A DNA stretch of 64,000 bases from Candidatus Poseidoniaceae archaeon (GCA_965659685.1 CBFHXB010000011.1:8595-72594), one strand, 5' to 3'. Numbered from the stretch's first letter, positions 2 through 63,649 are shown. Program-made: numbers and translations. Notes: generated by a model from the sequence alone, not told the origin.

Positions 2-697
2 ACCACCTACATCGGTCGTCCCAGCCCCAACGAATTGGGCGCGCCAGACGATGCGCTCGTGGACTGGACGCGCAACGCCAGCCACGTGCCTGACGGGGCT
101 CCGTCCGCATCCACCACCCTTGAGGACGCGTTTGCCTGCCTCCGGTCGATCGGATCTTCGGCATCCGGTGCAAACGCCGCTCTCGACAACGAGGGTTACA
201 TTTGGCGCGCCGTCGGTGAATCGGGAAGCGTGGAGGACGAGTGGAACCTCTCGTGGGTCGGCAACGACGACGCCCATGGCTGGGTTCGTGTTGACGTTGG
301 ACCCGGTGAAAACGGCACCTGCACCTTCGTCCAGAAGGAGTCCCTCGACCTTGGCATCGTCTGGAACCGCGAATCGGCGCCGGCCGTGCTTCCCTTTGAC
401 GAGGTGGAAGCCTTGCTCGTGACCGAAGGCCGCTTCCCAGAACTTGTCGGCAGCGCTGGGCTGTTCGACGCCGATGGAGGTCACAACGAGGGCCTTCGTC
501 GAGGTGTGTTGGTCGCTGTGCCCGACGATGGCCTGACCGGGCTGATCAGCGAGTTGGTTGACGGTGAGGCCGGGGCCACCACCTACGATTACGTGCGAAC
601 GTGGGAGCGCCAAGGATGGGATTCGTCCTTCAGCGTGGCCGTGGATGCCACCAGCGGTCGCGTGTTGGCCACCTCCCTCATCGAGCGTCCGGCGTGA
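2..697 (+). CDS. hypothetical acidic protein, probably 5'-partial
   Basis: The track ORF 35..697 begins at a TTG. The same frame has no stop back to nt 2, so the gene probably starts upstream of the window. I recognise no motif. Its TGA overlaps the next ATG (TGATG at 695-699). Confidence 0.4.
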   Translation, partial: TTYIGRPSPNELGAPDDALVDWTRNASHVPDGAPSASTTLEDAFACLRSIGSSASGANAALDNEGYIWRAVGESGSVEDEWNLSWVGNDDAHGWVRVDVGPGENGTCTFVQKESLDLGIVWNRESAPAVLPFDEVEALLVTEGRFPELVGSAGLFDADGGHNEGLRRGVLVAVPDDGLTGLISELVDGEAGATTYDYVRTWERQGWDSSFSVAVDATSGRVLATSLIERPA

Positions 698-30152: not shown

Positions 30153-31115
30153 TCAGCGGCGACCCTGCGCCTCAAGGGAGACCCTTGAGGGCTCACGGAC
30201 CCCGAATTCTCGACGCATGTCCTGCACGCGGCGGTGGAATTCGCGTGCCAAGGTCCAGTATTCCAGGGAGCCTGCTCCGGCTCCGGAGGACGTGGGTTTG
30301 TTGAGCAAGACGGTCGGTGCTCCGGACCACGGTGCCTCAGCCACGTTCACCAGACGTCGAATCGACGTGCTGAACAATTTGTTCGGGATGCTGAGGGCGA
30401 CTTGGTCGCACACGTGACGCGACAGTTTGGAGCGGGCGTCGACCATGGTCATCACGACGCCGAAAATCTTCAGGTTCCGGTTGATCCTTCGCTGGATCAT
30501 CTTGACCGAGTTCATCAGCATGCTGAATCCTTCCAAGGAGTAGTATTCCGCCTGAACGGGGACCATCACCCAATTTGCTGCGCTCAGGGCGTTGATGGAC
30601 AACAGTCCGAGGGAGGGGGGTGTGTCGATGACGATGTAGTCGAAGTGGTCGATGATGGGCGCCAACGCTTCCTTGAGGCGAGTCTCACGCCCGATCTTGT
30701 GGGAGAGTTCGATCTCCGCTCCGGAGAGGTGGATGTCGCTGGGAAGCAACCAGAGGTTCTCTGTGGTCAGGGTGGCGGGTGGACGGCCCTTCTCGTTGCG
30801 CAGCATCCATGCGTTCCGCATGGAGGCCGTCAGGTCCTCAGGACCGATCAGGTACTCGTCCATCAAGGGCAATTCCTCGCCGAGATCGTTGGTCAAGAGG
30901 TCGTACGCCGTCTTTTTGACGCGCTTCTTCTCGATGCCAAAGGACGTCGCGCAGTTCCCTTGCGGATCCAAATCGATGAGCAACACCTTCGCAGGAGGTA
31001 GCCCCATCTTCTGGTGACCGCGGGCCAGCGCCGCTGCAAGGTTGACCGCCGTGGTGGTCTTCGCGCAACCGCCCTTTTGGTTGGCGACCGCGATGACCAT
31101 CTTGTACGGGTCCAT
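30153..31115 (-). CDS. parA: ParA/Soj-family ATPase (copy 2)
   Basis: It has the deviant Walker A 'NQKGGCAKTTT', plus 'LIDLDPQGNCATSFG' and 'VIDTPPSLG'. A ~40-aa insertion follows the Walker A region, and the C-terminal tail is basic. Confidence 0.85.
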   Translation of the reverse strand: MDPYKMVIAVANQKGGCAKTTTAVNLAAALARGHQKMGLPPAKVLLIDLDPQGNCATSFGIEKKRVKKTAYDLLTNDLGEELPLMDEYLIGPEDLTASMRNAWMLRNEKGRPPATLTTENLWLLPSDIHLSGAEIELSHKIGRETRLKEALAPIIDHFDYIVIDTPPSLGLLSINALSAANWVMVPVQAEYYSLEGFSMLMNSVKMIQRRINRNLKIFGVVMTMVDARSKLSRHVCDQVALSIPNKLFSTSIRRLVNVAEAPWSGAPTVLLNKPTSSGAGAGSLEYWTLAREFHRRVQDMRREFGVREPSRVSLEAQGRR

Positions 31116-31176
31116 GCCTTCACTCCCGAGACGTTGAACCTCGGCTCTCCCCTATCAACCCCGGCCTCAATCCGCA

Positions 31177-36463: not shown

Positions 36464-36537
36464 TGCGCGAGGCAGGACTCGAACCTGCGACCTCCCGGTT
36501 ATCAGCCGGGTGCTCCAACCGACTAAGCTACCCGCGC
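36464..36537 (-). tRNA. tRNA-Ile (anticodon GAU)
   Basis: I folded it by hand at 74 nt. The acceptor is GCGCGGG/CTCGCGC with one G-U pair. The D arm is GCTT...GAGC, the anticodon arm is CCCGG-CTGATAA-CCGGG, and the T arm is GCAGG-TTCGAGT-CCTGC. No CCA is encoded. Confidence 0.85.
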
Positions 36538-36588: not shown

Positions 36589-37182
36589 TCACTCAAATTC
36601 AGAGGCGTCCATTTCGTTGAGCGTGATGTAGGACGGCAACTGCATGGCCCGTTCAAAGGTGCGGCCAAGGACCACTTCATCGAGCCGATCACGGGTACGT
36701 GCGATGGCCGTGAGGGGAAGCCGGACGGTCTCTCCGAGCTCGAAACGCTGCTGGACGCCGACGCGAAGGGTGACGATGAATCCCTTGTAGGTGCGCTTGA
36801 CTTTCAGGAGGCCGGTGATGATGCCGACTTCGTTGCCCTGGTTGTCCAAGACCGCACGGTCGAGCATTTCGTCGGGTGCGTAGAGCTGTTCGTCGATGCG
36901 CACGGTGTTGCGCCAGCGACGCTGGAGTTCGCGCATGGACTTGGAGAGGCGTACGGAGCCGTCGTCGTTGATGCTGTGAACAAGCTCCTTGGGAAGGGGT
37001 GCAAATTCAGCAGGCTTGCGCATGAATTCGCCCGCCACGTCCGTTTCGACCAGAAGGCGAACGGATCGCACACGTGATTCGTTGGGGTGGTGACGTTCCC
37101 CGATGATGGTGCCCACTTTGGTGTCCTTGACGTACACGTCGCGTTGCATCAATTCCTGGATGTGGTAGTCTGTTGGTGCCAT
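36589..37182 (-). CDS. PRC-barrel-domain protein
   Basis: Two PRC-barrel-like segments are present ('VYVKDTKVGTIIGERHH...' and 'LDRAVLDNQGNEVGIITGLLKVKRTYKGFIVTL'). The family call is from memory of the fold's sequence pattern. Confidence 0.5.
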   Translation of the reverse strand: MAPTDYHIQELMQRDVYVKDTKVGTIIGERHHPNESRVRSVRLLVETDVAGEFMRKPAEFAPLPKELVHSINDDGSVRLSKSMRELQRRWRNTVRIDEQLYAPDEMLDRAVLDNQGNEVGIITGLLKVKRTYKGFIVTLRVGVQQRFELGETVRLPLTAIARTRDRLDEVVLGRTFERAMQLPSYITLNEMDASEFE

Positions 37183-37250
37183 GTTCTCCCTTCCCGTTGC
37201 ACCGCCTGTGCTGAGGGGGACACTTAATGTCTTCGACGGATAATGTAACT

Positions 37251-37268
37251 GTTCAATTAGGAATACGC
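37251..37268 (+). repeat. CAATT-core element copy (GTTCAATTAGGAATACGC)
   Basis: It is identical to 39461-39477 (GTTCAATTGGAATACGC) apart from one inserted A. Confidence 0.65.
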
Positions 37269-37282
37269 AGTTAGTGACGAAG

Positions 37283-37299
37283 AATCAATTGGAAATCGC
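37283..37299 (+). repeat. CAATTGGAA element copy (AATCAATTGGAAATCGC)
   Basis: It has the exact CAATTGGAA core with the WWCGC flank shared with the copies at 37492, 39464 and 44151(-). Confidence 0.65.
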
Positions 37300-37366
37300 C
37301 GATAATCGGCATGTCGCATAATCCATTTCCATAAGTAAATCGCGGCATCTTTCATTTCTGAACGAG

Positions 37367-37381
37367 GTGAAATTCCAATTG
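37367..37381 (-). repeat. CAATTGGAA element copy (minus strand CAATTGGAATTTCAC)
   Basis: The core is exact. The flank GGAATTTCAC resembles the 53.7-kb copy (TAATTGGAATTCAC). Confidence 0.6.
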
Positions 37382-37487
37382 GGCTTTCCTCATTCTTCAC
37401 CACGCGTAGGCGGGCCCGTCCGATCGGTGCCGGGGTGGGGTCGCCTGGCCGGTAGATTTCGACCTAATAATCGATAGTTTAAGCGAA

Positions 37488-37505
37488 TTTTCAATTGGAA
37501 AACGG
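37488..37505 (+). repeat. CAATTGGAA element copy (TTTTCAATTGGAAAACGG)
   Basis: The core is exact, with the flank GGAAAACG as in the ubiD copy. It lies ~70 nt upstream of ATG 37564. Confidence 0.65.
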
Positions 37506-37563: not shown

Positions 37564-38253
37564 ATGGCCGCCGTGGACCTGCGTGGACTTCATCCGCGCT
37601 TTTCCGCGACCGTGATGCTCCATGCAGCCCGCAAAGGCCACCCTGTTGCTGGCGTAACGGAGGCCGCCAGGCAACTTGCCCGGGTGCGTGACCCACTGGG
37701 TTTGTCTTCGCTCATTGAGGAAGAGGATGCCACTGCACGTTTGTCCGGTCCAGGGGACGGGTCCCGTTTCGAAGTGGAGCGAGACGGGCGCGTGCTGCAG
37801 GTGTGCCCCATCGACGTGATTCCTACGCTCACGGCAAGTTTCTGGCCCGATCTCTTGCTTGATGCTGATGCGAGGGCCGGTTGGTGGGTGGCCGAGCATG
37901 ACCTTGTCGAGGCTCTGTTGAGCCTCGCAGCACACCCGGTGCCAGAAGGACGCCTCGTCCTCAGCGGTCGGAGGCGTTGGCAGGCCACTGAGTTGATGCA
38001 CGAGGCCGCCCTCCTGCACCGACGCTGGGAGCAAGGGCAAGTCGGTGCCTTCTCGGTCGAGGTGTTGGCTGAACCTCAGCGTCCACCTGTCCGGGTTGAA
38101 CCCGTTGAATTGGACGATCAGGAGCCAGATCTCGGACCTTTGCACCGTCTCTTGTCTGAGCACCGTTCAGAGGGTTGGCGCCCCCAGATGACGGTGCGTG
38201 AAGCCTTGATGCACCATCTGGCCCTGGTAGAGGGAGCACTCAACCGCGGGTGA
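37564..38253 (+). CDS. hypothetical protein
   Basis: 229 aa from ATG 37564, with high third-position GC. I recognise no motif. The 3' end overlaps the dys stop by 14 nt (convergent genes). Confidence 0.4.
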   Translation: MAAVDLRGLHPRFSATVMLHAARKGHPVAGVTEAARQLARVRDPLGLSSLIEEEDATARLSGPGDGSRFEVERDGRVLQVCPIDVIPTLTASFWPDLLLDADARAGWWVAEHDLVEALLSLAAHPVPEGRLVLSGRRRWQATELMHEAALLHRRWEQGQVGAFSVEVLAEPQRPPVRVEPVELDDQEPDLGPLHRLLSEHRSEGWRPQMTVREALMHHLALVEGALNRG

Positions 38254-39272: not shown

Positions 39273-41693
39273 TCAATCAATCCCTGCGCCATCGAGCCGG
39301 TCACGGATCGTCATCAACCGGTCACGGAGCCGAGCGGCCTCTTCGAAATCAAGGGCCCGTGCAGCGTCTTCCATCGCTGCTTTGAATTCAGCGGCCAGGT
39401 CGACCAAGGCTTCCTTTGAGGTGGGAAAATCTTCGTCATGTTCCAATTGAGAAATTGAATGTTCAATTGGAATACGCTGGTCACTGTCCGCCGTGTTGTT
39501 GCTTGGCAAAAAGGCCGCAGCAGGGCCGTCTGCACGCCCACCACGCTTCGCCACCAAACGTTTCCCACCACGGGAAGTGGTGGTGCCTTCGAGGAGGCCC
39601 TCTGATTCTTGGCCCATTTGTGGAAGGGCCTTGACGATGGTGCGGGGTACAATGCCACGCCGTTCGTTGTCCTCGTGTTGCCGCTGGCGACGTTCCAAGG
39701 TTTGGCGGATGGCTCCGGTCATGGCAGGCGAAACGCTGTCGGCGTAGAGAAGGACGGATCCGTTGGCGTTTCGCGCAGCACGCCCGATGGTTTGCAAGAG
39801 CGATCGCTCGTTGCGAAGGAAGCCCTGACGGTCCGCGTCGAAAATCGCCACCAAGCTGACCTCAGGAATGTCCAATCCCTCTCGGAGCAGGTTGATGCCG
39901 ACAATGACGTCAATGAGGCCCAAGCGCAACGCGTTGATGATCTCGGTGCGTTCGATGGTGTCGATTTCCGAGTGGAGGTGGTGCGCCTTCACGCCCATTC
40001 GGCTGAGGTATGCGGCGACCTCTTCGGCGAATTTGATCGTCAGGACGGTCACCAAGGTCCGCTCCCCACGGTCGATTCTGGCGTTGATTTCTGAGAGCAA
40101 GTCGGCCACTTGCCCTTCAGTGGGTCGAACTTCAATGCCCGGATCCAACAAGCCCGTCGGTCGAATTTCCATGCGTGGCAAGTGGTCAATCGTTTGCAGC
40201 ATTTCGTACATCGACGGCGAGCCCTGGATTTTCTTGGCCACGTCCGCGGGCCCAGCGCCGCCCCTGGAAGCGACGTGAAGCAGGCCTTCAGGCACCGGTT
40301 GACCGGTCACCTCACACAGGTGCCGCAATTCGCGCTCGCCCGGTGTTGCAGAGACGTAGACCATTTGCGGGACAAGGCCTTGGAATTCTGGAATTTTCAG
40401 CGGCCGGTTGTCCGCGGCCGAAGGCAATCGGAAGCCGTGCTCAATGAGGTTCTCTTTGCGTGCCCTGTCCCCGTGGTACATGCCTCCTACTTGCGGGAGG
40501 GTCACGTGCGACTCGTCCATGATGACCAGGAAACGGGTGGGGTCGCCATGGAATTGACGCGCGCAGGCCGCAAAGAAGTCGAGCAAACAATACGGTCGTT
40601 CGCCTGCTTCACGGCCGTCGAAATGCCGTGAATAATTCTCGATGGCCAAACAGTGTCCGACTTCCCGCAGCATCTCAAGGTCGTACTCTGTGCGTTGTTC
40701 CAAGCGATGGCGCTTCACCTGCTCTTTCGTTCCGTCGAAGTACCGCAGCCGGTCGTTCAGTTCGCTTTCAATCCGCTCAAGCGCGATTTCGAACCGCTCC
40801 GGGCTGGTCATGAAGAACTCCTTCGGGTGAATCCAAGCCTCTTCCAAGGCGTCGAGCACCTCCCAACTGACCGGATCGCACACGGAGACGGCGATGACGC
40901 CATCGAAGTCGAATCGAATGCGAAGTGGATCGTCGCGGCTCGGCATCCATACGTCAAGCACTTCGCCACGCAAGCGGGCTTGGCCGCGTTCGAGGTCGGT
41001 GTTGGTGCGGGCGTACTGCAGCCCGACCAAAGCCCGCATCAAGTCCTGCGGTTCGATGGCCTGGCCCACGTGCACCCTGAGGTGGTGCTCCAGGAAGGTT
41101 TCGGGCGGATTGAGGCCGTAAATGCACGACACGGAGGAGACGATGACACAATCTGGGCGTGAGACCAAACTTGCGACTGCGGAGAAGCGCTCCTGTTCGA
41201 TTCGCTCGTTGATGGAGAGCTCCTTGTCGATGTACAGGTCTCGCTTGGGCAGGTAGGCTTCGGGTTGGTAGTAGTCGTAGTGTGAAACGAAGTATTCAAC
41301 GGCGTTTTCAGGGAAATAGCCGGCAATCTCGTGGTGCAATTGCCGAGCAAGCGTCTTGTTGTGCGAGATGATCAACGTTGGGAGGTTGAGCCGTTCGATG
41401 ACGTTGGCCATGGCGAAGGTCTTGCCTGAGCCGGTCACGCCAAGCAGCACACAGCGCTCTTGCCCTCCCTCGATTTGCTGCACGAGTTGTTCGATTGCTT
41501 CGGGTTGATCGCCCGCCGGTGCATGTTCGGAATGAAGGCGAAAGCGGCTCACGTCAGGACTCAGGTGTTCCAACGAAGCGCCTTCGAGCGCTCGTGAGAG
41601 GTCAAAGGGGTCCCGTTCCTGAAGGTCCACCTCGCCCACGTCGAGGTTGGCACGGGCCTCGAAGGACCCGTCGTCGTCCCATTCGTCGACCAC
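39273..41693 (-). CDS. uvrB: excinuclease ABC subunit B (UvrB), extended
   Basis: 'GVTGSGKT', 'DESH', 'QTIGRAARN' and the C-terminal UVR motif 'LDFEEAARLRDRL' are present. It starts at a GTG. The 806 aa includes a ~45-aa acidic N-terminal extension and a longer pre-UVR linker. Confidence 0.92.
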   Translation of the reverse strand: MVDEWDDDGSFEARANLDVGEVDLQERDPFDLSRALEGASLEHLSPDVSRFRLHSEHAPAGDQPEAIEQLVQQIEGGQERCVLLGVTGSGKTFAMANVIERLNLPTLIISHNKTLARQLHHEIAGYFPENAVEYFVSHYDYYQPEAYLPKRDLYIDKELSINERIEQERFSAVASLVSRPDCVIVSSVSCIYGLNPPETFLEHHLRVHVGQAIEPQDLMRALVGLQYARTNTDLERGQARLRGEVLDVWMPSRDDPLRIRFDFDGVIAVSVCDPVSWEVLDALEEAWIHPKEFFMTSPERFEIALERIESELNDRLRYFDGTKEQVKRHRLEQRTEYDLEMLREVGHCLAIENYSRHFDGREAGERPYCLLDFFAACARQFHGDPTRFLVIMDESHVTLPQVGGMYHGDRARKENLIEHGFRLPSAADNRPLKIPEFQGLVPQMVYVSATPGERELRHLCEVTGQPVPEGLLHVASRGGAGPADVAKKIQGSPSMYEMLQTIDHLPRMEIRPTGLLDPGIEVRPTEGQVADLLSEINARIDRGERTLVTVLTIKFAEEVAAYLSRMGVKAHHLHSEIDTIERTEIINALRLGLIDVIVGINLLREGLDIPEVSLVAIFDADRQGFLRNERSLLQTIGRAARNANGSVLLYADSVSPAMTGAIRQTLERRQRQHEDNERRGIVPRTIVKALPQMGQESEGLLEGTTTSRGGKRLVAKRGGRADGPAAAFLPSNNTADSDQRIPIEHSISQLEHDEDFPTSKEALVDLAAEFKAAMEDAARALDFEEAARLRDRLMTIRDRLDGAGID
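39441..39477. repeat. dual-core CAATTG element inside uvrB (TTCCAATTGAGAAATTGAATGTTCAATTGGAATACGC)
   Basis: There are two CAATTG cores at 39444 and 39464, 20 bp apart. The outer arms TTCCAATTGA / TCAATTGGAA are inverted repeats. This AT-rich patch lies in GC-rich coding DNA, in the linker before the UVR domain. Confidence 0.7.
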
Positions 41694-41734
41694 GCTTCAT
41701 GGCGGTCGGGCGCCGGTTTGAACCCTTGTGGGGT

Positions 41735-42466
41735 TCAGGGAAGGTACAGCCCACCGTTCACGTGGAGCACGGCACCGGTCATGTAGGCGCTGTCGTCGCC
41801 GATGAGGAAGGACACCGCTCCCGCCATGTCTTCGGGAGAACCAAGGCGACGCAAGGGCACTTCCGCCTCGCGTGTTTCACGCTTCTGGGGGGTATCGGCG
41901 GCGAGCAGGTCCGTGTCGACGTAGCCAGGTGCAAGCACGTTGACACGTTGCCCTCTCGGACCCGCTTCTTGGGCGAGCGAGCGTGCCCATGCTTGCAGGG
42001 CTGCTTTGGACGCGCTGTAATCGGCGCCATGCGGGGACCCTCGTGTGCCAAGTTGTGAGCCGACCACGACGATTCGGGCGCCGTCGGAAAGATGGGGTTG
42101 AACCGCCGCCCAGACGAGGAAGGCGCCACGGAAATTCACGTTCATGGTCCGATCCAGTTGTGCGAGGTCGAGGTCACTGGCCGGAACCCGGTCGTACCTT
42201 CCATGGTTCAACACCAAGGCCTGCACGGTGCGGGCCATCCACGGGTGGCTGGCCAGCAAGGCCACTTCGTCCTCTGCTGCACAATCGATCTTGACCGCCA
42301 AGGCATCACCACCCGATTCTCGGATGGCGTCAACGACAAACTCGGCCGGACGGGACGACGTCGTGTAGGTGAGCAGGACGTCGAATCCATCCTTTGCCAA
42401 CCGCTTACAGACCGCTGCACCGATGCCGCGGCCTCCACCAGTGACCAAGGCCACGGGGCGGCTCAC
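41735..42466 (-). CDS. short-chain dehydrogenase/reductase (FabG-like)
   Basis: 'TGGGRGIG' and the catalytic 'YSASK' are present. The GTG start overlaps the upstream stop (GTGA). Confidence 0.8.
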   Translation of the reverse strand: MSRPVALVTGGGRGIGAAVCKRLAKDGFDVLLTYTTSSRPAEFVVDAIRESGGDALAVKIDCAAEDEVALLASHPWMARTVQALVLNHGRYDRVPASDLDLAQLDRTMNVNFRGAFLVWAAVQPHLSDGARIVVVGSQLGTRGSPHGADYSASKAALQAWARSLAQEAGPRGQRVNVLAPGYVDTDLLAADTPQKRETREAEVPLRRLGSPEDMAGAVSFLIGDDSAYMTGAVLHVNGGLYLP

Positions 42467-42861
42467 GCCTGTTCCTCCGTGTGCTTGGAGAGGATGGCCC
42501 CAAGTTCGGGGGGCGTCCAGCCTTCGGGCTTCATGACTTTCCCGTCCTCTCTGCGGAGGACCTTTCCGTCCACCAGTTTGGCCATGTTCGAACGATGGAC
42601 TTCGGCGAAGGCCTCGTCGTAGAGGTGATGCAGGCCGTGGTTGATGACCGAGCCCGCGAGGATGTAGCCGATGTCCGCCAGCGCGTCGAGGACTTCGACC
42701 AAATCACCGTCTGCCAAGGCTTGGGCGTATTCCTCCACTTCTTCACGCAGGAGCTTGACGCGCAGTTCGGCCAAGTCCTCCGGGCCAAGTCCTGGCGCGT
42801 CCAACTTCGGGATCTCGAAGGCCTGATTGAACTCCAGCAGGGCCGTCAGCATCGGATTCAT
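42463..42861 (-). CDS. MazG/PRA-PH-like all-alpha nucleotide pyrophosphohydrolase
   Basis: 'LRVKLLREEVEEYAQALADGDLVEVLDALADIGYILAG' is the EExxE/D metal-binding helix pattern. The start is trimmed to ATG 42861. Confidence 0.6.
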   Translation of the reverse strand: MNPMLTALLEFNQAFEIPKLDAPGLGPEDLAELRVKLLREEVEEYAQALADGDLVEVLDALADIGYILAGSVINHGLHHLYDEAFAEVHRSNMAKLVDGKVLRREDGKVMKPEGWTPPELGAILSKHTEEQA

Positions 42862-42913
42862 GCGTCGAAGCGTGACCTTGCAGCACTTGAGCAATCCGCT
42901 CCAGAGGTTCACC

Positions 42914-43891
42914 TCAATCCAGGCAAGACCCATCGCACGGCGGCTCGGTCGCATAAGCCACGGCAAGCGCGGCGAGCAACACCCAACCGGTCAGCATGGA
43001 GACGCGGAACAGCACCGTTTGAAAATCGCCGAAACGCTTCATCCGCAGCACGACGATGACGTTGGCCAGCGCCATCACGCCCGCCGCCGCGAGGAACCAG
43101 ATGCTGTCCACCGGGTCGGCGAACGCAAAGCAAGCAAACCACAACAGCGAGAGTTGGACCGTGGTTCGCGTCGTCGCACGCTCATCGAAACGTGCCGGGA
43201 AGGAGTGGATGCCTTGCGCTTTGTCGCTCTCCATGTCCATGCGGGCGTAGTTGATGTCAAAGGCCGCGATCCAAAGGGCCACGCCGAGGGAGATGGGAAG
43301 GACACTGGGCGCCCAGAGGAATTCGGTCCGTGTGGAAAACATGCCCGTGATGGCGGCCCAACCGTGCACATCGGCCGCCACCGCAACCCACGCGCCTGCA
43401 GGGGCCAAACCCAAGCACAGCCCGAGCCAAAAGTGGCACAGCCACGTGAAGCGCTTCATGTATGGATACACGACGAAGGTCAGGACGGGCAGCCAGGCCA
43501 TCATCAGCGCCACGCGGTTGAGCAGACCTGCGCTGACGAGCAACATGACCAGGAAGCCTGCAGCCAACGACCATGCGGTCCTCATGCTCATGCTTCCTGA
43601 GGCGAGGTGGCGTCCTTGCGTGCGAGGGTTGGCGGCGTCAATGTCCCGGTCAATGATGCGGTTGAGGGCCATGGCCAAGCCTCGGGCGCCGACCGCTGCA
43701 AACAGAATCCAGAGCAGGTCGATGCCAGGTTCGACGTTGAATTGCATCACGGCAACGAGGTAACCGATCAGCACGAAGGGAAGGGAAAACAGGGTGTGCT
43801 CGACTTTGACGAACTCGAGCACGCTGCGGACGTCGATGTCAGGCCCCTCCGTCGGGGAAGCGCAAGTGCGGCGGCCATGAATGGTTCGCAA
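42914..43891 (-). CDS. ubiA: UbiA-family aromatic prenyltransferase
   Basis: 'NRIIDRDIDAANPRT' is present and the protein is polytopic. With the 43891 start it overlaps the ubiD 3' end by 53 nt, so the true start is uncertain. Confidence 0.8.
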   Translation of the reverse strand: MRTIHGRRTCASPTEGPDIDVRSVLEFVKVEHTLFSLPFVLIGYLVAVMQFNVEPGIDLLWILFAAVGARGLAMALNRIIDRDIDAANPRTQGRHLASGSMSMRTAWSLAAGFLVMLLVSAGLLNRVALMMAWLPVLTFVVYPYMKRFTWLCHFWLGLCLGLAPAGAWVAVAADVHGWAAITGMFSTRTEFLWAPSVLPISLGVALWIAAFDINYARMDMESDKAQGIHSFPARFDERATTRTTVQLSLLWFACFAFADPVDSIWFLAAAGVMALANVIVVLRMKRFGDFQTVLFRVSMLTGWVLLAALAVAYATEPPCDGSCLD

Positions 43892-45800
43892 GTTCGGGAT
43901 GGGCGGCCACCTTTTCCAAGGTCTCAGGGCTGTGCAAGGTCACGGCAGGCCATCGGCGCACGCCATGAGCCTCTGAAGGAATCGGCGTGGTGGCGTCCCA
44001 GCAAAGGCGTGCTTTCGCTGCATCAAAGCTGAGGCCACGCCCCACGTCAAAGCGGCAAAAGAACTGCCACAGCATCCTTCGTCGTGCTTTCGAGCCGTGC
44101 AAGTCAAGGTCGTCATCCGTGACGATAAGCCAACGCAATTCCTTTGCGTTTTCCAATTGCCAAATTTGATTTCTCAATTGGTGAATCTTTTCTTGTCGGG
44201 CCTGCTCAAGCGCATCGCCCTCCGACGTGACGTCCGACCCGGTTCGCGCTGAGGGGCGGCCTTCGATGGACACGCTCACCACGAGCATGCTGCTGCGCAG
44301 CAGCCGTGCGTCTTCGACACCGTCGAGCGCGAGCACGGCGCCGAGGTCGTCCCCGGACCAGCCTGGGGCCTCGCCTTCTCCACGCCGCCAGTCAGGGGTG
44401 TCCTGACGGAAGGAACCGAGCAACGGCGAGTCCGAGGAGCGCGGATCCGAACGTGGGATGGAGGTCGCATCGATGATGACCTTGTCGTGGACGTTCTCGT
44501 ACGGGCTTGCCGCTTCGAGCGCGTCCGCCACCATGCCTTCGAGGACCAGCACGTCCTCCGAGGGATCCACCTTGTCGTTGAGGTCGTCAAGGAAGCCTTC
44601 GAGGTCCTTGGGGTCTCGGTCCGGGTCGACCACGACCATGGATTTCAGGAACATCATCTGGCCCGCGCCCATCAGTCCAAGTGCGGTCTTGCGTCCTTGG
44701 CGGGCGTAGCGTTGCTTTGACGCGACGATGGCAAGGTTGTGGAAACCGGTCTCCAACGGCAGATGAACGCTGACCACGTCACGGTGCTGGAAGCGAAGAA
44801 CGGGACTGAACTGACGTCCGATGGCCTCGCCGAGGAAACCGTCCTCCATCGGCGGCAACCCGACGATGGTGGCGGGGAGCATGGCGTCCTTTCGGCGCGT
44901 CACGGCGGTCACGTTCAGCACCGGGTAATGTCCGGTCAAGGAGTAGAACCCGTAGTGATCGCCGAAGGGGCCTTCCACGCGTAAGTCGGTGGGGTCCGTC
45001 CATCCTTCGATGACGATGTCGGCCTCGGCAGGGACCCAGAGGTCTTGCGTCGCCGCTTTGGTCAACGGCAGCCGGCGACGCCCGAGGATGCCAGCAAACT
45101 GGTATTCAGACAGGTTGTCAGGCAGCGGAGAAATCGCCGAGAAAATGAGTTCCGGCGGGCCTCCCAGACAGATGGCGACGGGCATGCGCACACCGGCTGC
45201 TGCGTGGTCTGCGCCATGCTTGTGGACCTGCCAGTGCAACCCTGCTTCCTTTGGTCCAAAAATTTGCGACCGGTACATGCCGAGGTTGTGCTCGCCGCTC
45301 GCGAGGTCGCGCGTCACCACCAAGGGGAGGGTGATGTACGGCCCTCCGTCCATGGGCCACGTCGTCGGGATGGGCAGTTTGGTGAGGTCAGGGTCTCTGT
45401 CAACGATGCGCTGAACGCTCCCTCGTCGCTTGCGCTTCGGGGCGAAGGCCAGGGCGTCCATCGCCAAAGGCAAGGCTTCCCACGGTCGCTTGAGGTAACG
45501 CGGCACGTCAGGCTTCATCATCGCCACCATGCGATCGCCGATGGCCGTCTCCGTCTCGACACCGAGCGCGCGAAGGGTGCGGTCCTCGCTGCCGAAGAGG
45601 TTCATCACCAGAGGAATGTCACTGATGCTGCCGTCAGCCAAGCGGGGTTGCTCGAAGATGACCGCAGGGCCGTCGTTCTTCACCAGGAGGTCAGCGATGG
45701 CGCCGGCCTCGTACACGACGTCGACGGGACGAGGGATGCGCAGCACCTCGCCACGGCTGTCGAGGTGGTCGACCCACCGCTTGAGCGTCCTCCATGCCAC
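43839..45800 (-). CDS. ubiD: UbiD-family (prenyl-FMN-dependent) decarboxylase with a ~150-aa internal insertion
   Basis: The N-terminus 'LKRWVDHLDSRGEVLRIPRPVDVVYEAGAIADL' and the C-terminal 'LIVTDDDLDLHG...MLWQFFCRFDVGRGL' resemble UbiD. It is 653 aa, against ~490-500 aa typical (from memory). Confidence 0.8.
   Translation of the reverse strand: MAWRTLKRWVDHLDSRGEVLRIPRPVDVVYEAGAIADLLVKNDGPAVIFEQPRLADGSISDIPLVMNLFGSEDRTLRALGVETETAIGDRMVAMMKPDVPRYLKRPWEALPLAMDALAFAPKRKRRGSVQRIVDRDPDLTKLPIPTTWPMDGGPYITLPLVVTRDLASGEHNLGMYRSQIFGPKEAGLHWQVHKHGADHAAAGVRMPVAICLGGPPELIFSAISPLPDNLSEYQFAGILGRRRLPLTKAATQDLWVPAEADIVIEGWTDPTDLRVEGPFGDHYGFYSLTGHYPVLNVTAVTRRKDAMLPATIVGLPPMEDGFLGEAIGRQFSPVLRFQHRDVVSVHLPLETGFHNLAIVASKQRYARQGRKTALGLMGAGQMMFLKSMVVVDPDRDPKDLEGFLDDLNDKVDPSEDVLVLEGMVADALEAASPYENVHDKVIIDATSIPRSDPRSSDSPLLGSFRQDTPDWRRGEGEAPGWSGDDLGAVLALDGVEDARLLRSSMLVVSVSIEGRPSARTGSDVTSEGDALEQARQEKIHQLRNQIWQLENAKELRWLIVTDDDLDLHGSKARRRMLWQFFCRFDVGRGLSFDAAKARLCWDATTPIPSEAHGVRRWPAVTLHSPETLEKVAAHPELANHSWPPHLRFPDGGA
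44146..44181 (-). repeat. dual-core CAATTG element inside ubiD (minus strand CCAATTGAGAAATCAAATTTGGCAATTGGAAAACGC)
   Basis: The cores at 44154 and 44175 are 21 bp apart. The minus strand aligns with the plus strand of 39443-39477 at roughly 80% identity: 13/13 at the left, 13/14 at the right, with a divergent spacer. Confidence 0.7.
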
Positions 45801-45869: not shown

Positions 45870-47138
45870 ATGGACTCTGTCCGCTCAAGTCATGCCATGG
45901 GAGAGGGCTCCGCCGTCGACGTGGACCTCGTGGTCATCGGCGCAGGTCCGGGCGGCGGCTCCGCAGCGTTGCACGCTTCCCGGCTCGGCTTGTCCGTGAT
46001 GGTGCTGGAGGCTGACCCTGAGATCGGTACCCCCGTTCATTGTGGCGAATGCCTGTCGCATCTCGCGACCGAGCAACTCGAACTCGACCTGCCTGAGCAC
46101 GTCATCGCTTTGACCGTGGACGGCGTCCGCGTCATCTTCCCTGACGGCACGGCAAAGCTCCTGACCGAACCGGGTTACGTGCTCGAAAAGCACCTGTTTG
46201 AACGATGGATCATGGAACAAGCCGAAGGGCGCGGTGCGGACGTTCATCTCGGGCATCGCGTCACCAAAATGGAGCGAGAGTACAACAGCGAAAATCAATT
46301 TTCCAATTGGCTTATCGAAGGTCGGGGGGATGCATTTCCTCTTCGTTGCCGTGGCGTCATCGACGCCTCGGGTGTGCACGGAGCCGCCTCCAAAATCCTC
46401 GGGATGCCGGGAGAAGTTGAGGTCATTGCTGGCTTCCAATACGAACTCAACGACGTGCCCAACGTCGGCTACCTCGATTTCTACATCCAGCCGGAGTATG
46501 CCCCTCATGGTTACGTGTGGATGATTCCAAAGGAAGGCGAACGCGCCAACGTCGGTTTGGTCACCACGGACAAGAAAGGGGCCATCAAGTACCTCGATCA
46601 ATTCATCGAGGACACCTACCTCAACGGCAAGCCTCACGTCAATCCACCTTGGCGAAAAGAGGGCATCAAGGTGAGGCCCTTCGGCGGGACCATTCCGATT
46701 TCTGGCCCACGTCCAAGCACCGTGGAAGACGGCTTGTTGTTGGTCGGCGACGCCGCAGGATTCACGTCCCCCCTCTTCGAAGGCGGCACTCACCTTGCAC
46801 TTTGGTCGGGCCGAGCCGCTGCGGAGACGTTCGCCGAGGCCATCGCCGCTGGGGCGCCCACCAAGGCCAGCCTCGCCGGCTACCAACGTCGATGGAAAGG
46901 GGCCTTCCCACCGTACCACAAGATCCTGCGAGGGAAGACGGCCCTCTACGACCTCAGCGACGAGGAGATGTCGGTCATGGCTCGATGCCTCCCTGAGGAA
47001 CTCGGATCCATGTCGGCCATGCAGAAGTTGGGCATCGGCCTGAAGATCCTCGTCAAGCGGCCGGCGTTGTTGACCAAGCGCGTCATTTCGGTGCTCCTTT
47101 CCTTTGGGTATTCGCGGGCCAAGCACTTCGGTTGGTGA
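45870..47138 (+). CDS. geranylgeranyl reductase family FAD-dependent oxidoreductase
   Basis: 'DLVVIGAGPGGGSAA' (FAD binding), 'GDAAGFTSPLFEGG' and 'HGYVWMIPK' are present. The start is ATG 45870 or 45897. The track start 45045 is an antisense run through ubiD. Confidence 0.8.
   Translation: MDSVRSSHAMGEGSAVDVDLVVIGAGPGGGSAALHASRLGLSVMVLEADPEIGTPVHCGECLSHLATEQLELDLPEHVIALTVDGVRVIFPDGTAKLLTEPGYVLEKHLFERWIMEQAEGRGADVHLGHRVTKMEREYNSENQFSNWLIEGRGDAFPLRCRGVIDASGVHGAASKILGMPGEVEVIAGFQYELNDVPNVGYLDFYIQPEYAPHGYVWMIPKEGERANVGLVTTDKKGAIKYLDQFIEDTYLNGKPHVNPPWRKEGIKVRPFGGTIPISGPRPSTVEDGLLLVGDAAGFTSPLFEGGTHLALWSGRAAAETFAEAIAAGAPTKASLAGYQRRWKGAFPPYHKILRGKTALYDLSDEEMSVMARCLPEELGSMSAMQKLGIGLKILVKRPALLTKRVISVLLSFGYSRAKHFGW
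46291..46310 (-). repeat. CAATTGGAA element copy inside the reductase gene (plus AAAATCAATTTTCCAATTGG)
   Basis: It has the exact core on the minus strand. The plus-strand 20-mer matches 63483-63502 (AAAATCAATTTTCTAATTGG) at 19/20. Confidence 0.65.
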
Positions 47139-52079: not shown

Positions 52080-53690
52080 ATGGACCGTCTTCCGAGCCGT
52101 TTTTCGCCCAACTCCGAGGAGGCCACCGCACGTCGTGAAGCCAACCTCGCGTTGATCGAGGACCTTCGTGCTCGATTGGACCAGGTCAGGGCCGGTGGAA
52201 GTCCACGAGCCGTGGAGCGGCATCGTGCTCGGGACAAGATGCTCCCACGCGAACGCATTGAGGCCATCATCGACCCAGGCACGGCTTTCCTCGAGACCTC
52301 CCCGTTGGCGGCCGATGGGCTCTACAACGACGGTGCGCCGAGTGCTGGAATCGTGACCGGCATCGGTGTCGTTCACGGGCGTGAATGCCTCTTTGTAGCC
52401 AACGACGCCACCGTGAAAGGAGGTTCATACTTCCCAATGACCGTCAAGAAGCACATCCGTGCTCAGGTCATCGCCCATGAGAATCACCTGCCGTGCATTT
52501 ACCTGGTCGACTCAGGCGGGGCCTTCTTGCCCATGCAGGACGAGGTCTTCCCAGACATCGGCCATTTCGGACGGATTTTCCGAAACCAAGCGCGGATGTC
52601 GGCCGACGGCATCCCGCAGGTCGCCGCCGTGCTCGGTTCCTGCACCGCCGGTGGAGCCTACGTCCCGGCCATGTCCGACGAATCGATCATCGTCAAGGGC
52701 AACGGGACCATTTTCCTCGCCGGTCCTCCGCTGGTCAAAGCCGCGACGGGCGAAGAGGTGTCGGCCGAAGACCTCGGTGGGGCTGACGTGCACACCGCCA
52801 CCTCGGGCGTGGCCGATCATTTCGCAGAAAACGAGCAAGAAGCCCTTCGTAAAGTGCGGAACGTCATCGAGAACTTGGGGCCACGGACCTTGGCGCCGGC
52901 TGCCGGTGCGGCACCGGAAGACCCGCATTACGACCCAGAAGAACTGCTCTCCATTGTCCCCGAAGACAACCGGACGCCCATCGATGTGCGGGAACTGATC
53001 GCTCGCATGGTGGACGGTTCACGCTTCCACGAATTCAAGCCCCGCTACGGCACGACCTTGGTCTGTGGCTTTGCCCGTATTCACGGGCACCTTGTGGGCA
53101 TCGTCGCCAACAACGGAATCCTCTTTTCCGAATCAAGCCTGAAAGGCGCGCACTTCGTGCAATTGTGCGGTCAACGGCAGGTGCCCTTGGTGTTCCTCCA
53201 GAACATCACCGGCTTCATGGTCGGGCGGGAATACGAAGCAGGCGGCATCGCCAAGGACGGAGCCAAACTCGTGACGGCGGTCTCCTGCGTTGACGTTCCC
53301 AAGTTCACCGTCATCGTCGGCGGCAGCCACGGTGCAGGCAACTACGGCATGTGCGGAAGGGCCTACGACCCCCGCTTCCTCTTCATGTGGCCGAACGCTC
53401 GCATCTCGGTGATGGGCGGGCCGCAGGCGGCCGATGTGTTGACGACAATCAAGCAGGACCAGCGCGCACGCGAGGGCAGCGATCCGATGACCGAAGATGA
53501 AGTCGAAGCCTACCGTGCTCCCATTCTAGAAAAGTACGAGGAAGAGGGTTCGCCCTACTACTCCACCGCTCGGCTGTGGGACGATGGCGTCATCGATCCA
53601 CGCGATACCCGTGACGTGCTCGGCCTCTGCTTGGCCGCGGCACGAAACGCACCCGCGCCTCAGAAGGGGTATGGAATTTTCAGAATGTGA
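52080..53690 (+). CDS. acyl-CoA carboxylase carboxyltransferase (beta) subunit, methylcrotonyl-CoA carboxylase-like
   Basis: It has full-length carboxyltransferase architecture. The N-terminus '[40 protein letters not shown]' is typical of MccB. The enoyl-CoA hydratase next door supports a leucine-catabolic role. Confidence 0.85.
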
Positions 53691-53722
53691 ATTCCAATTA
53701 AAAATTCAAAAATCCAATTGAG
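53691..53722 (-). repeat. dual-core element variant in the promoter gap before the hydratase gene
   Basis: The sequence is ATTCCAATTAAAAATTCAAAAATCCAATTGAG. Cores CAATTA 53695 and CAATTG 53715 are 20 bp apart. The minus strand reads CAATTGGAT...TAATTGGAAT. Confidence 0.6.
53698..53705 (+). promoter_or_regulatory. TATA-like box TTAAAAAT for the hydratase / biotin carboxylase genes
   Basis: It sits 26-33 nt upstream of ATG 53731 inside a 40-bp AT-rich gap. This geometry fits a leaderless or near-leaderless archaeal transcript. Confidence 0.45.
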
Positions 53723-53730
53723 GTTTTCCC

Positions 53731-54588
53731 ATGAACGTCCCGGCTTGTGAACATCTTCATCTCGAGGTTGAAGGTGCCGTTCTGACCATTGGGTTGAACC
53801 GAGAATCGGTGTACAACGCCCTCAACACCGCGATGATCACCGAACTGTGCGAGGTCTTCGATTGGAGCGCTTCTCGAAGCGCAGGACCTGCAGGTGCGCT
53901 CGAGGATGAGGACGGCCCACTGTTCCGACTGGTCGTGCTTCACGGCTTGGGCAAGCACTTCTGCGCTGGCGCAGACATCAACATGATGCGAGACGCGGGG
54001 GCGAAAACCCCCGAGGAGAACCGCGAGGACAGCGCTCGGTTGGACCGCTTGTTCAACGGACTCTGGTCCCATCCCTGCTACACGATTGCCGTGCTTCACG
54101 GCGTGGCCCTCGGCGGCGGAGCCGGGCTCATTTCTGCCTGCGATCACGTGGTGGCGGTCGAAGGTGCACGCATCGCCCTCTCCGAAGGAAAGCTCGGCAT
54201 CCTCCCCGCCGTCATTGGCCCGTACGTCTACCGGCGTGTCGGCAGTGCAGCCTTCCGAAGGCTGGCCATGAACGCGGGGCGCGTCGGCACCGACGAAGCA
54301 CAGCGCATCGGCCTCATCGAAGACGTGGTCCAGGATCACGACGCAGCGTGGGCCACCGTCGCCGGTGTGGTGGCCGAAGTCATGACCACCGGACCTTCCG
54401 CCGTGACCGCGGCGAAGGAACTCACCCTCGGCTTTGACCGATGGACCGGTGACGACCAAGCCTTGCGCACCTGGACCCTTGATTTCACCAGCCGCATGCG
54501 TGGCTCCGACGAAGGCCAAGAGGGCTTGTCGGCCTTCTTGGAAAAGCGCCCACAAGCCTGGCGACCAAGCGATGGAGGCCCCGAGTGA
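53731..54588 (+). CDS. enoyl-CoA hydratase/isomerase family (methylglutaconyl-CoA hydratase-like)
   Basis: The crotonase signatures 'GKHFCAGADINMM' and 'LHGVALGGGAGLISACD' are present. Confidence 0.85.
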   Translation: MNVPACEHLHLEVEGAVLTIGLNRESVYNALNTAMITELCEVFDWSASRSAGPAGALEDEDGPLFRLVVLHGLGKHFCAGADINMMRDAGAKTPEENREDSARLDRLFNGLWSHPCYTIAVLHGVALGGGAGLISACDHVVAVEGARIALSEGKLGILPAVIGPYVYRRVGSAAFRRLAMNAGRVGTDEAQRIGLIEDVVQDHDAAWATVAGVVAEVMTTGPSAVTAAKELTLGFDRWTGDDQALRTWTLDFTSRMRGSDEGQEGLSAFLEKRPQAWRPSDGGPE

Positions 54589-61980: not shown

Positions 61981-62456
61981 TGTCCAACGAATCGAACATG
62001 CGTCGCGTGACCGCCATCCGCAACGGTACCGTGATCGATCACATCCCGGCCGGCAGTGCACTTCGCGTGCTGGAGCTGCTCAACATTGGCCAGGGCACCT
62101 CCGTTCCAGTGTCGCTTGTGATGAACGTCCCTTCAAAGAAAAAGGGCGCCAAAGACATCGTCAAGGTGGAAGACCGTGAATTGACCCAAGCCGAACTCGA
62201 CCGCCTCGCGCTGGTCGCTGAAGGTGCCAGCGTGGCCATCATCCGTGCCTACACCGTGGCAGAGAAGTTGGAAATCGCCCTTGGCGATGAAATCGTGGAC
62301 GTGGTGCGTTGCACCTTCTCGAACTGCATCACGCAAAACCCGCGCGAGCCACTCGCGCACAGGCTGCGCGTGCTGTCGAAAGATCCGTTGCAGATCCGTT
62401 GCCACTATTGTGGGCGGCCACAAGAGATCGACGAATTGGTTCAGAACGTCATTTGA
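61980..62456 (+). CDS. pyrI: aspartate carbamoyltransferase regulatory subunit
   Basis: 'VTAIRNGTVIDHIP' and the C-terminal Zn site 'CTFSNCIT...CHYCG' are present. The ATG overlaps the pyrB stop. Confidence 0.9.
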   Translation: MSNESNMRRVTAIRNGTVIDHIPAGSALRVLELLNIGQGTSVPVSLVMNVPSKKKGAKDIVKVEDRELTQAELDRLALVAEGASVAIIRAYTVAEKLEIALGDEIVDVVRCTFSNCITQNPREPLAHRLRVLSKDPLQIRCHYCGRPQEIDELVQNVI

Positions 62457-63417
62457 CGTCGAGCAGGTCACGCATCTCACAAGCCTTGCACACGTCCCTC
62501 GAGGAGGCGCTACCGCAGCGTTGGCAGGATCCAACCGGTTCGGAAACGTCTTCCGCGGCAGGGGTCATGGAACGGATTGCATCCAGGCTTCGGACAAGAC
62601 CGTGGCGCGTTCCGGGACGGTCTTCTTCGAGGGTGGCCACCACGTCGCGCATCCGCCATCGCAGGGCACCCTCGGCGTTCGGGCAGACTTCATTGTGAAT
62701 CGGCAAGTTGCGGTGCAACGCGACCAGGTGAACCTCCTGCTCGGGAATCCAACGAAGCGGAACGATGCGAGGTGCAAGGCCTTCTGCGGGTCGATCGGTG
62801 TGCGGAGCCAAGCGGCGGCTGCGTTCCACTTCACCTGCGGTCAAGTTCATCAGCACCGTTTGGGCCATGTCGTCGAGGTTGTGGCCAAGCGCGACAACGT
62901 CGGCTCCGACCATGTCTGCCAGCGCGTTGATGCCTTGGCGCCGGAAGACGCCGCAGTATGAACAGGGCAGACGCGGGGCCTCCGGATTCTTGTCAAGGAT
63001 CGCGTCCAAGGACGCGGTGACCTCGTCCATTGCGAGGAAATCTTGGTCCGCAAAGGAGGTGGTGAGGAACTCAACGTCGAGCCTTTCGCAGAGGGTCGCA
63101 GCCGCTTCAATGGACGGTGGCCTGTAGCCCTCGATCCCCTCGTCCACGCATCCTGCAACGATGCGAACGTCCGGTCGGTTTCCAATGAGGTCCACCAGCA
63201 TCGACAACAAGACCGCAGAATCCTTCCCTCCAGAAATGGCCACCAGCACCGTGGTGGGTTCATCGATGCTGAGTTGCTTCCGAAGTTCCCGGCCGACTTT
63301 TTTCCGAACGGAGCGGTCGAGATGACGCGCGCACAGGCTTTGCCCCGAGTAGGCCTGGGTGACGACGGCGGGCGCACGGCACACGGAACACTCCGGGACC
63401 TCAAACGTGGGCGCCAC
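62449..63417 (-). CDS. PP-loop tRNA 2-thiolation ATPase (TtuA/NcsA-like)
   Basis: The PP-loop is 'VAISGGKDSAVLL'. The N-terminal 'CSVC...CARH' and C-terminal 'CQRC...CKAC' are zinc fingers. It starts at a GTG, and its 3' end overlaps pyrI by 8 nt. Confidence 0.8.
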   Translation of the reverse strand: MAPTFEVPECSVCRAPAVVTQAYSGQSLCARHLDRSVRKKVGRELRKQLSIDEPTTVLVAISGGKDSAVLLSMLVDLIGNRPDVRIVAGCVDEGIEGYRPPSIEAAATLCERLDVEFLTTSFADQDFLAMDEVTASLDAILDKNPEAPRLPCSYCGVFRRQGINALADMVGADVVALGHNLDDMAQTVLMNLTAGEVERSRRLAPHTDRPAEGLAPRIVPLRWIPEQEVHLVALHRNLPIHNEVCPNAEGALRWRMRDVVATLEEDRPGTRHGLVRSLDAIRSMTPAAEDVSEPVGSCQRCGSASSRDVCKACEMRDLLDVK

Positions 63418-63466: not shown

Positions 63467-63503
63467 CAATTTTTCAATTACAAAATCAATTTTCTAATTG
63501 GAG
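63467..63503 (+). repeat. multi-core CAATT element variant in the divergent intergenic region
   Basis: The sequence is CAATTTTTCAATTACAAAATCAATTTTCTAATTGGAG. The cores are CAATTA 63475, CAATTT 63487 and TAATTG 63495, with the outer pair 20 bp apart. Confidence 0.6.
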
Positions 63504-63649
63504 TTCTTCATCTGCCGTGCCAACATCACACCTCCGGCAGGTGATGGCTCCCCTGTCCTCCGTTTTTCAGAAATTCATGACCTCTGAAGGTTCGCGTTCT
63601 GAATTGGATTGCGAAAACCGCCTCCAAGGGCCGTTCGACGGGAAACATC

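Follow-up and report, generated by a model that had tools for sequence, protein, structure and literature searches.

We analysed a 64-kb stretch of DNA (hereafter the window) from a Marine Group IIa archaeon of the Poseidoniaceae, in which two minus-strand genes, uvrB and ubiD, each carry a short AT-rich element built around a pair of CAATTG cores. The window is ~62% GC over its full length, which makes the AT-rich element stretches conspicuous. The nearest relatives of the host proteins are 92-94% identical and come from metagenome-assembled genomes (MAGs) labelled Poseidoniaceae, Poseidoniales or 'Euryarchaeota archaeon', corresponding to Marine Group IIa. The two host genes and their elements are located as follows, in window coordinates:

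39273-41693, minus strand: uvrB host gene, encoding UvrB (806 amino acids)
39438-39477, no strand assigned: uvrB dual-core element in the 3' linker, cores at 39444-39449 and 39464-39469, 20 bp apart
43839-45800, minus strand: ubiD host gene, encoding a UbiD-family decarboxylase (653 amino acids), canonical domains ending at amino acid 447
44146-44186, no strand assigned: ubiD dual-core element in the C-terminal extension, cores at 44154-44159 and 44175-44180, 21 bp apart

The uvrB copy reads CCAATTGAGAAATTGAATGTTCAATTGGAATACGC on the plus strand (39443-39477), and the ubiD copy reads CCAATTGAGAAATCAAATTTGGCAATTGGAAAACGC on the minus strand (44181-44146). As an initial annotation of this DNA had claimed, the left parts of the two copies agree in 13 of 13 nucleotides and the right parts in 13 of 14, with CAATTG cores starting at 39444 and 39464 in uvrB and at 44154 and 44175 in ubiD. 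The description given there also holds for the minus-strand orientation of both host genes, for the reading frames and for the TGA stop codon that interrupts the uvrB copy when it is read in the 'sense' direction. On the coding strand, the uvrB element is read as ATT CCA ATT GAA CAT TCA ATT TCT CAA TTG GAA (IPIEHSISQLE) and the ubiD element as CAA TTG AGA AAT CAA ATT TGG CAA TTG GAA (QLRNQIWQLE). Both lie in weakly constrained protein segments, again in line with the initial annotation: the uvrB copy occupies a linker between the UvrB domain, which ends at amino acid 690, and the UVR domain, which begins at about amino acid 771, and the ubiD copy is found in a ~200-residue lineage-specific C-terminal extension past the canonical UbiD fold (PDB 2idb aligns to UbiD residues 3-447 only). 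This extension (amino acids 448-653, window 43839-44459) has only 50 representatives among 1.84 billion protein cluster representatives; the canonical C-terminus has a 'DAT[ST].P' motif that recurs in it (IIDATSIP... and WDATTPIPSE). A lone repeated AT-rich 13-mer would be unremarkable, and the case for a genuine element rests on the in-register second half and on conservation among orthologues. The dual-core pattern CAATTRN{14,15}YAATTG is present 4 times in the window, as against 0.00 in 100 shuffles.

The two copies had been described as lying in opposite orientation relative to their host genes. This proves to be an artefact of palindromy: each core and the whole pair are nearly palindromic, and the orientation of a copy is thus ill-defined. 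In 34 species, the same-orientation alignment was the better one in 24, tied in 9 and worse in 1, with the window itself being a tie (27 versus 27 identities). Long-range RNA pairing between the uvrB and ubiD copies was considered and rejected, because of the ambiguous orientation and because the copies do not co-vary in the relatives.

We compared the elements to their orthologues, using 80 species-representative loci around ubiD together with loci around uvrB; the element comparison comprised 81 ubiD and 38 uvrB sequences from loci with a GC content of 40-63%. The relatives keep the gene order, with the geranylgeranyl reductase gene (GGR) followed by ubiD, ubiA, PRA-PH, SDR, uvrB and DS, by a hypothetical gene, and by the genes for a PRC-barrel-like protein, PRPP synthase, L7Ae, S28e, L24e, NDK and aIF5B. 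The ubiD and uvrB copies are located at the same codons in ~80 species, and their DNA is nearly invariant, including at synonymous sites. Over this GC range the coding-strand consensus is yCAATTGArAAATTCAATTTGGCAATTGGA for ubiD and yCAATTGrAAAWTCrAATWYYCAATTGrmA for uvrB. The encoded peptides are conserved in the family as well, as QL[RK]N[SQ]IWQL[DE] in UbiD and [PS]I[EG]xSNxQL in UvrB. The initial annotation had proposed a similarity at the nucleotide level with no shared peptide; the first half of this statement holds, since the same nucleotides are found at synonymous sites in genomes of 40-63% GC, whereas the second half has to be qualified, as copies compared in the same orientation have a piece of peptide in common, N-S-x-x-Q-L.

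A comparison of third codon positions across species is the informative test, and the synonymous-site analysis that had been suggested placed the element in the top third-position-identity window of both genes. In an 80-sequence codon alignment of ubiD, the element forms the best 10-codon window with a third-position identity of 0.893, the gene mean being 0.51 and the next independent window reaching 0.68. It also has the lowest GC content at third positions (GC3) of the gene in 22 high-GC sequences, 0.28 versus 0.73. In the 36-sequence uvrB alignment the element is likewise the top window (0.866 versus a gene mean of 0.544), with a GC3 of 0.085 compared to 0.71 for the gene in high-GC species. 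At the element codons, high-GC species retain AAT (5-17% usage), AGA (1-2%), ATT (24-27%) and TTG (18-22%). Codon probabilities calculated sequence by sequence give a statistic that is only modestly extreme, since neither CAA nor GAA is a rare codon. A programmed frameshift or a rare-codon pause was rejected as an explanation, since the nucleotides are the same whether the genome has 40% GC, with these codons in common use, or 62% GC.

The motif unit can be described as an 18-bp quasi-palindrome, AWTTTY-CAATTG-RAAAWT (flank consensus), which usually occurs as a tandem pair with centres 20-21 bp apart; each core is a palindrome of its own with symmetric A/T flanks. In 1.37 Mb of related loci, the spacings between paired CAATTG cores are sharply quantised, with 75 pairs at 20 bp, 59 at 21 bp, 18 at 32/33 bp, 13 at 35 bp and almost nothing else. 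The two-turn phasing noted for the original pair of copies is thus the dominant arrangement. The 18-mer AWTTTYCAATTGRAAAWT is matched in at least 14 of 18 positions at 12 places in the window, with 0.57 expected. All 12 matches are located within 37.2-63.5 kb, none in the first 37 kb, and in two relatives no motif is present in the next 10 kb beyond the right window end. The window contains eight 30-nucleotide stretches with a GC content of at most 30%, and all eight harbour the motif. Further copies thus exist and are conserved, and neither outcome that the initial annotation had named as refuting its proposal was observed. Extra pairs in the relatives mark a second uvrB site, GGR, the junction of the genes for an acyl-CoA carboxyltransferase (ACC) and an enoyl-CoA hydratase (ECH), and the regions upstream of the PRC-barrel and TtuA-like genes. 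In the window, these further sites are represented by:

46292-46315, no strand assigned: GGR single-core copy AAAATCAATTTTCCAATTGG inside the geranylgeranyl reductase gene (~45897-47138, plus strand), core read as xxC AAT TGG (N-W)
37250-37505, no strand assigned: core cluster of conserved architecture in the intergenic stretch that separates two divergent genes, the PRC-barrel gene (36589-37182, minus strand) and a hypothetical gene (37564-38253, plus strand)
53688-53733, plus strand: ACC/ECH junction dual-core element, cores CAATTA at 53695-53700 and CAATTG at 53715-53720
63469-63506, no strand assigned: TtuA upstream dual-core element, cores CAATTA at 63475-63480 and TAATTG at 63495-63500, 20 bp apart

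Several additional features of these copies were noted. An extended tail, CAATT(G/A)GGAAWWCG(C/G), is common to five window copies (37254-37270, 37286-37299, 37492-37505, 39464-39477 and 44146-44159); relatives do not conserve it at the same sites, and it could reflect chance or homogenisation of copies within the genome. In 413 kb of high-GC related loci, GAATTC occurs 170 times and CAATTG 198 times, while other AT-rich 6-bp palindromes were counted 0-46 times, mostly below 30; TCATGA (136) and TGATCA (71), with two G/C bases each, are also frequent there. GAATTC may represent a variant core or simply Glu-Phe codons. Matches to the dual-core pattern were found at least 120 times in viral contigs with apparently unrelated names, which we assume to be chance matches in AT-rich phages.

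An unbiased scan of the neighbouring genes identified the motif (AGCGAAAATCAATTTTCCAATTGG) as the top third-position-identity window of GGR (0.910, z = 4.7, n = 76). Seven neighbouring control genes have third-position peaks of 0.6-0.76 only, mostly at Met/Trp codons. In 13 related loci, a mix of low- and mid-GC species, the GGR copy is accompanied by a second core 35 bp away. The CAATTG core is read in three different frames, as CAA TTG in ubiD and in the second uvrB core, as xCA ATT Gxx in the first uvrB core and as xxC AAT TGG in GGR. The amino acids vary only where CAATTG is left intact: UvrB codon 743 specifies Pro, Ser or Ala, yet its second and third nucleotides are CA in 97-100% of the sequences, and exchanges between Glu and Gly (GAA/GGA) in UvrB leave CAATTGRA intact. 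Distant UbiD homologues keep the Ile-Trp pair but have replaced both Gln-Leu pairs (NLRDAIWSL, AIRDSIWGL, RIMDSIWNL, KVAEMIWGM) in a segment of the same length. The invariance of Q-L...Q-L within the family is thus driven by the DNA, and the equal segment length shows that the element arose by substitution in existing codons and not by insertion. These comparisons indicate that the element is under selection at the nucleotide level, as double-stranded DNA, with the coding sequence accommodating it, and that the two original copies are members of a family of putative cis-elements conserved throughout the Poseidoniaceae.

In lower-GC relatives, a third dual-core element, GCAATTGAAAAATTGATTTCTCAATTGGAAAAT, is located at uvrB codons 66-77 (window 41463-41498) over the conserved UvrB helix AIEKLISQLEN. 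It has been lost in the high-GC clade of the window (AIEQLVQQIEGG) with the length unchanged. At the start of the FKBP gene (window ~49734), the first codons of lower-GC relatives read ATGGAAGAAGGAACAATTGTC and contain CAATTG; this is the gene's most third-position-conserved window in the relatives (0.79), and the window itself has ACCATCGTC.

The intergenic copies are placed at or beside core promoter elements, as would be expected for an operator or an upstream activating sequence (UAS), at the PRC-barrel gene, at the TtuA-like gene and at the ACC/ECH junction. For the PRC-barrel gene, the upstream cores in the window are CAATTA at 37254-37259 and CAATTG at 37286-37291, 37376-37381 and 37492-37497. 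Two cores 32-33 bp apart lie directly upstream of the TATA box in 24 of 24 distinct relatives, with further cores upstream. A second conserved box in this region, ATTATRCGWC (window 37313-37322, GTCGCATAAT on the plus and ATTATGCGAC on the minus strand), is found between the two cores in lower-GC species, some of which have a second copy further upstream, and just outside the core pair on the side away from the gene in the window and in high-GC relatives. This box may belong to a composite site, or a second factor may bind there. The TtuA-like gene (62449-63417, minus strand, GTG start) has its element 52-89 nucleotides upstream of the start codon. The element is conserved in two relatives (L206 and L207), and in L207 a TATA box, TTTTATAT, comes directly after the second core. 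Since they directly precede the TATA boxes, the PRC-barrel and TtuA copies should lie outside the transcripts that start from those promoters. The pair at the ACC/ECH junction fills the ~45-nucleotide spacer from the TGA of the carboxyltransferase gene (53688-53690) to the ATG of the hydratase gene (53731), and the second core runs into the Shine-Dalgarno (SD) sequence GGAG/GAGG (GAGG in the window); the same architecture is found in 49 distinct relatives.

A general archaeal promoter signal (B recognition element/TATA) was rejected as the identity of the motif. Typical genes of two relatives (L001 and L003) have TTTATAT-type TATA boxes and SD sequences without the motif, indicating that the motif is a specific signal rather than a part of ordinary promoters.

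Most likely, the element represents a duplex-DNA site for a dimeric binding protein, since its cores are palindromic with symmetric flanks, its spacing is fixed at two or three helical turns, copies are found in front of TATA boxes, and its conservation is independent of frame and strand. We put the chances at about even that it is an operator- or UAS-like site at which a dimer-of-dimers DNA-binding protein regulates transcription. Each unit would bind one dimer of a sequence-specific protein, and the two dimers would bind cooperatively on one face of the helix, a plausible arrangement already suggested in the initial annotation. Intergenic pairs directly upstream of or over core promoters (PRC-barrel, TtuA, ACC/ECH) would then regulate transcription, and the same protein would have extra sites inside ubiD, uvrB and GGR, where the pairs would serve as auxiliary operators, looping partners, roadblocks or internal regulatory sites for downstream genes. 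Bacterial ARG boxes, two 18-bp palindromes spaced 2-3 bp and bound on one DNA face by hexameric ArgR, offer a comparison. Our element similarly consists of two ~18-bp A/T-rich imperfect palindromes with centres 20-21 bp apart at or near core promoters, but ARG boxes have the sequence TGAAT...ATTCA and ArgR is bacterial, whereas the element has YCAATTGR and is also conserved deep inside coding regions.

Several observations weigh against a role as operator. We recognised no transcription factor gene adjoining the site cluster, and Pfam, NCBIfam and PDB gave no match for the hypothetical proteins encoded next to the site-rich intergenic region. The intragenic pairs either precede the next start codon by 140-360 bp or lie deep within genes, by hundreds to thousands of bp. 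Classical operators do not usually occupy such positions, and it is uncommon for transcription factor sites inside genes to be under purifying selection this strong throughout a family. The regional clustering of the sites fits a chromosome-organising role at least as well, and transcribed copies can form a weak core-core hairpin, which leaves room for a role in RNA. In addition, Marine Group II (MGII) archaea are uncultured.

Among the alternatives, taken in falling order of probability, we considered ORB-like (origin recognition box-like) sites for a protein of the Orc1/Cdc6 family, marking either an origin region centred on the 37.2-37.6 kb cluster or targets of a non-initiator Orc1 paralogue acting as a regulator. 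The ORB consensus is CTTCCAGTGGAAACGAAAGGGGT in Archaea and GTTCCAGTGGAAATGG-AGGGGTA in Methanomassiliicoccales, and ORB1 of Methanomassiliicoccus luminyensis reads GTTCCATTGGAAATCG, the stretch of ORB1 set against TCAATTGGAAATCGC being TCCATTGGAAATCGG (Table 2 of PMC4153887). Four window copies, TCAATTGGAAATCGC (37285), TCAATTGGAAAACGG (37491), TCAATTGGAATACGC (39463) and GCAATTGGAAAACGC (44146, minus strand), match TTC.A.TGGAAA in 10 of 12 positions. Compared by eye and ungapped, up to 13 of 15 positions match the M. luminyensis box, with TCAATTGGAAATCGC as a match to ORB1. Like ORBs and mini-ORBs, the element has a short dyad-symmetric core and GGAAA flanks, occurs in pairs, and has several copies in one intergenic region, with several cores at both ends of a region of 380-490 bp. 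Its core TTCAATTGGAAA agrees with TTCCAGTGGAAA in 10 of 12 positions (the form tested being TTCCAGTGGAAA[C/T]), but its conserved bases, CAATTG, differ from the ORB dyad TCCA-N-TGGA. A related link is provided by the non-initiator Orc1-2 of Sulfolobus, which binds a DNA damage-responsive element (DDRE), ANTTTC, at DNA-damage-response promoters (PMC9738581). The flanks of our element, ATTTTC and GAAAAT, contain ANTTTC as an inverted repeat, and uvrB is among the hosts or neighbours, joined in one relative by genes for MGMT and a photolyase-related protein. Unlike the DDRE, which is a single 6-mer at crenarchaeal promoters (PMC9738581), the element consists of palindromic pairs with an invariant CAATTG, and most of its associated genes are not repair genes.

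The Orc1 reading nevertheless appears doubtful. An orc1/cdc6 gene was found neither in the 64-kb window nor in the related loci (no open reading frame with a GxPGTGKT Walker A motif, no Pfam match), none of the copies has a G-string adjoining its cores, and at 37.2-37.6 kb the middle of the intergenic region has a high GC content in this genome instead of forming a DNA-unwinding element. The invariant part of the element is CAATTG and not the TCCA/TGGA dyad, only ~40% of the cores correspond to CCAATTGG, and the dyad spacing is 1 bp off that of ORBs, the dyad centre being 2 bp in the element and 1 bp in the ORB. Many copies of the element are intragenic tandem pairs at a fixed distance of 20-21 bp, an arrangement in which ORBs are not known. 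We thus do not file the element as an ORB, given the missing G-string, orc1/cdc6 gene and AT-rich unwinding region, while an Orc1-family protein as the binder is a live possibility.

A second alternative, which we regard as unlikely, is that the sites form a regional cluster for chromosome organisation or partition, functionally similar to bacterial parS, matS or Noc-binding sites; such palindromes, often within genes, would stay constant because a structural DNA-binding protein uses them to mark a domain of the chromosome. Intragenic palindromic sites known from bacteria include parS, matS and the Noc and SlmA sites as well as the auxiliary operators lac O2 and gal OI. The element resembles these in being a short palindrome over coding sequence that is constant at synonymous sites and can cluster regionally. 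Its orthologous intragenic positions are conserved family-wide, six or seven site groups are concentrated in ~26 kb with none in the neighbouring 37 kb or, in relatives, in the next 10 kb, and the window contains two genes for ParA/MinD-like ATPases (568-1713, plus strand; 30153-31151, minus strand). The clustering, however, is seen in a single 64-kb window and its flanks, no motif copies are present near the ParA-like genes, and the TtuA and ACC/ECH sites have become separated in a 2.04-Mb relative, so the sites are not a fixed block. In contrast to parS, matS and lac-type sites, several copies keep a precise position with respect to TATA or SD signals, something that a purely structural role does not call for, and we identified no ParB-, MatP- or LacI-type partner. 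Under this improbable scenario, the CAATTG pairs would be recognition sites of a chromosome-level system in MGII, bound by an Orc1-family or a partition/organiser protein and forming a regional array of ultraconserved, largely intragenic landmarks. We know of no parS- or matS-like system in Thermoplasmatota. If true, this would be the first chromosome-level DNA-binding site system of that kind described for Thermoplasmatota, and for an archaeal lineage that is uncultured and abundant worldwide. The two ParA/MinD-like proteins are P-loop ATPases (AAA_31/CbiA/MipZ), and in relatives the second gene is followed by two small open reading frames of 50 and 84 amino acids.

It is quite improbable that the element acts in RNA, with the two CAAUUG cores pairing as an mRNA hairpin that serves as a processing, protein-binding or translational-control site. 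Most copies are transcribed, a core-core hairpin is the predicted minimum free energy structure for several of them (-12.1 kcal/mol with z = -3.2 for the window uvrB copy), the second core of the ACC/ECH pair runs into the SD sequence in the 49 relatives, and the TtuA cores CAATTA...TAATTG keep their complementarity. The predicted folding is, however, inconsistent among copies, with minimum free energies between -3 and -12 kcal/mol and z values between -3.2 and +0.7, the junction copy being without a hairpin, and arm mismatches are uncompensated (A.C on the sense strand). A hairpin would not need each core with its flanks to be palindromic in itself, transcripts from the PRC-barrel and TtuA promoters should not include the copies in front of the TATA boxes, and the GGR copy lies on the other strand. 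In a search of 36.0-47.5 kb against Rfam at a permissive threshold, only a tRNA was detected and no family matched the element.

We strongly disfavour the reading that there is no DNA-level function and that the conserved peptides (IExSxxQL and QLxNxIWQL) are encoded by similar codons through codon bias, low-GC ancestry or chance. Both peptides are indeed conserved in all orthologues examined, the element codons are the preferred ones in low-GC relatives, and CAA and GAA reach 46-53% even in high-GC species, in keeping with the modest codon-probability statistic. In three genes, however, third positions at the motif are far more conserved than elsewhere, the remainder of each gene being saturated, the amino acid varies where the CAATTG nucleotides are fixed, the same motif is found in non-coding DNA, and distant homologues do without Q-L. 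Remnants of a miniature mobile element (MITE- or REP-like) inserted into tolerant linkers, insertion into linkers having been one option in the initial annotation, would account for the palindromic structure, the multiple copies and the variable protein segments, but can hardly be the explanation, since the positions are orthologous with no presence/absence length polymorphism in ~80 species, distant UbiD homologues have segments of equal length with other residues at the cores, no target-site duplications or longer shared flanks were found around the copies, and the N-terminal uvrB copy overlies a universally conserved UvrB helix.

The picture that emerges from these sequence comparisons is that of a family-wide, quasi-palindromic, putative cis-element, conserved at the nucleotide level over coding sequence in three frames and reused at promoters. 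We found no description of it in the literature or in Rfam, and extended motif strings match only primers and the Drosophila BEN-domain site CCAATTGG. Marine Group II is among the most abundant groups of planktonic archaea, and to our knowledge nothing is known about its gene regulation or chromosome biology. A sharply defined family-wide signal that overrides codon choice in three frames provides a concrete handle for experiments: the 36-mer could be used as bait for a binding protein, and thousands of MAGs and metatranscriptomes already exist in which the element can be mapped. The linked genes to which it points are few, namely those for the highly conserved PRC-barrel protein, TtuA, ECH, ubiD/ubiA, uvrB and GGR. 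It also offers a clean natural case of dual coding, in which a protein and a DNA signal share the same bases, made visible by an AT-rich element in a GC-rich genome.

Some further observations concern the genes around the sites. In a low-GC relative (L205:6326-9165), PRA-PH and SDR are separated by inserted genes that encode MGMT (DNA_binding_1), an ion channel and DPRP, a photolyase-related protein; they give the uvrB neighbourhood a DNA-repair flavour and contain no motif copies themselves. The PRC-barrel gene, which has the most motif-rich promoter region, encodes a protein of 197 amino acids with two PRC-barrel-like repeats and no Pfam match above threshold; the corresponding protein of a 48% GC relative shares 70% identity with it. 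Directly downstream of the PRC-barrel gene, at 36464-36537 on the minus strand, lies a tRNA gene (Rfam RF00005, 71.7 bits). In relatives, a second small PRC-domain protein is encoded next to CDC48 (L207:1516-1755).

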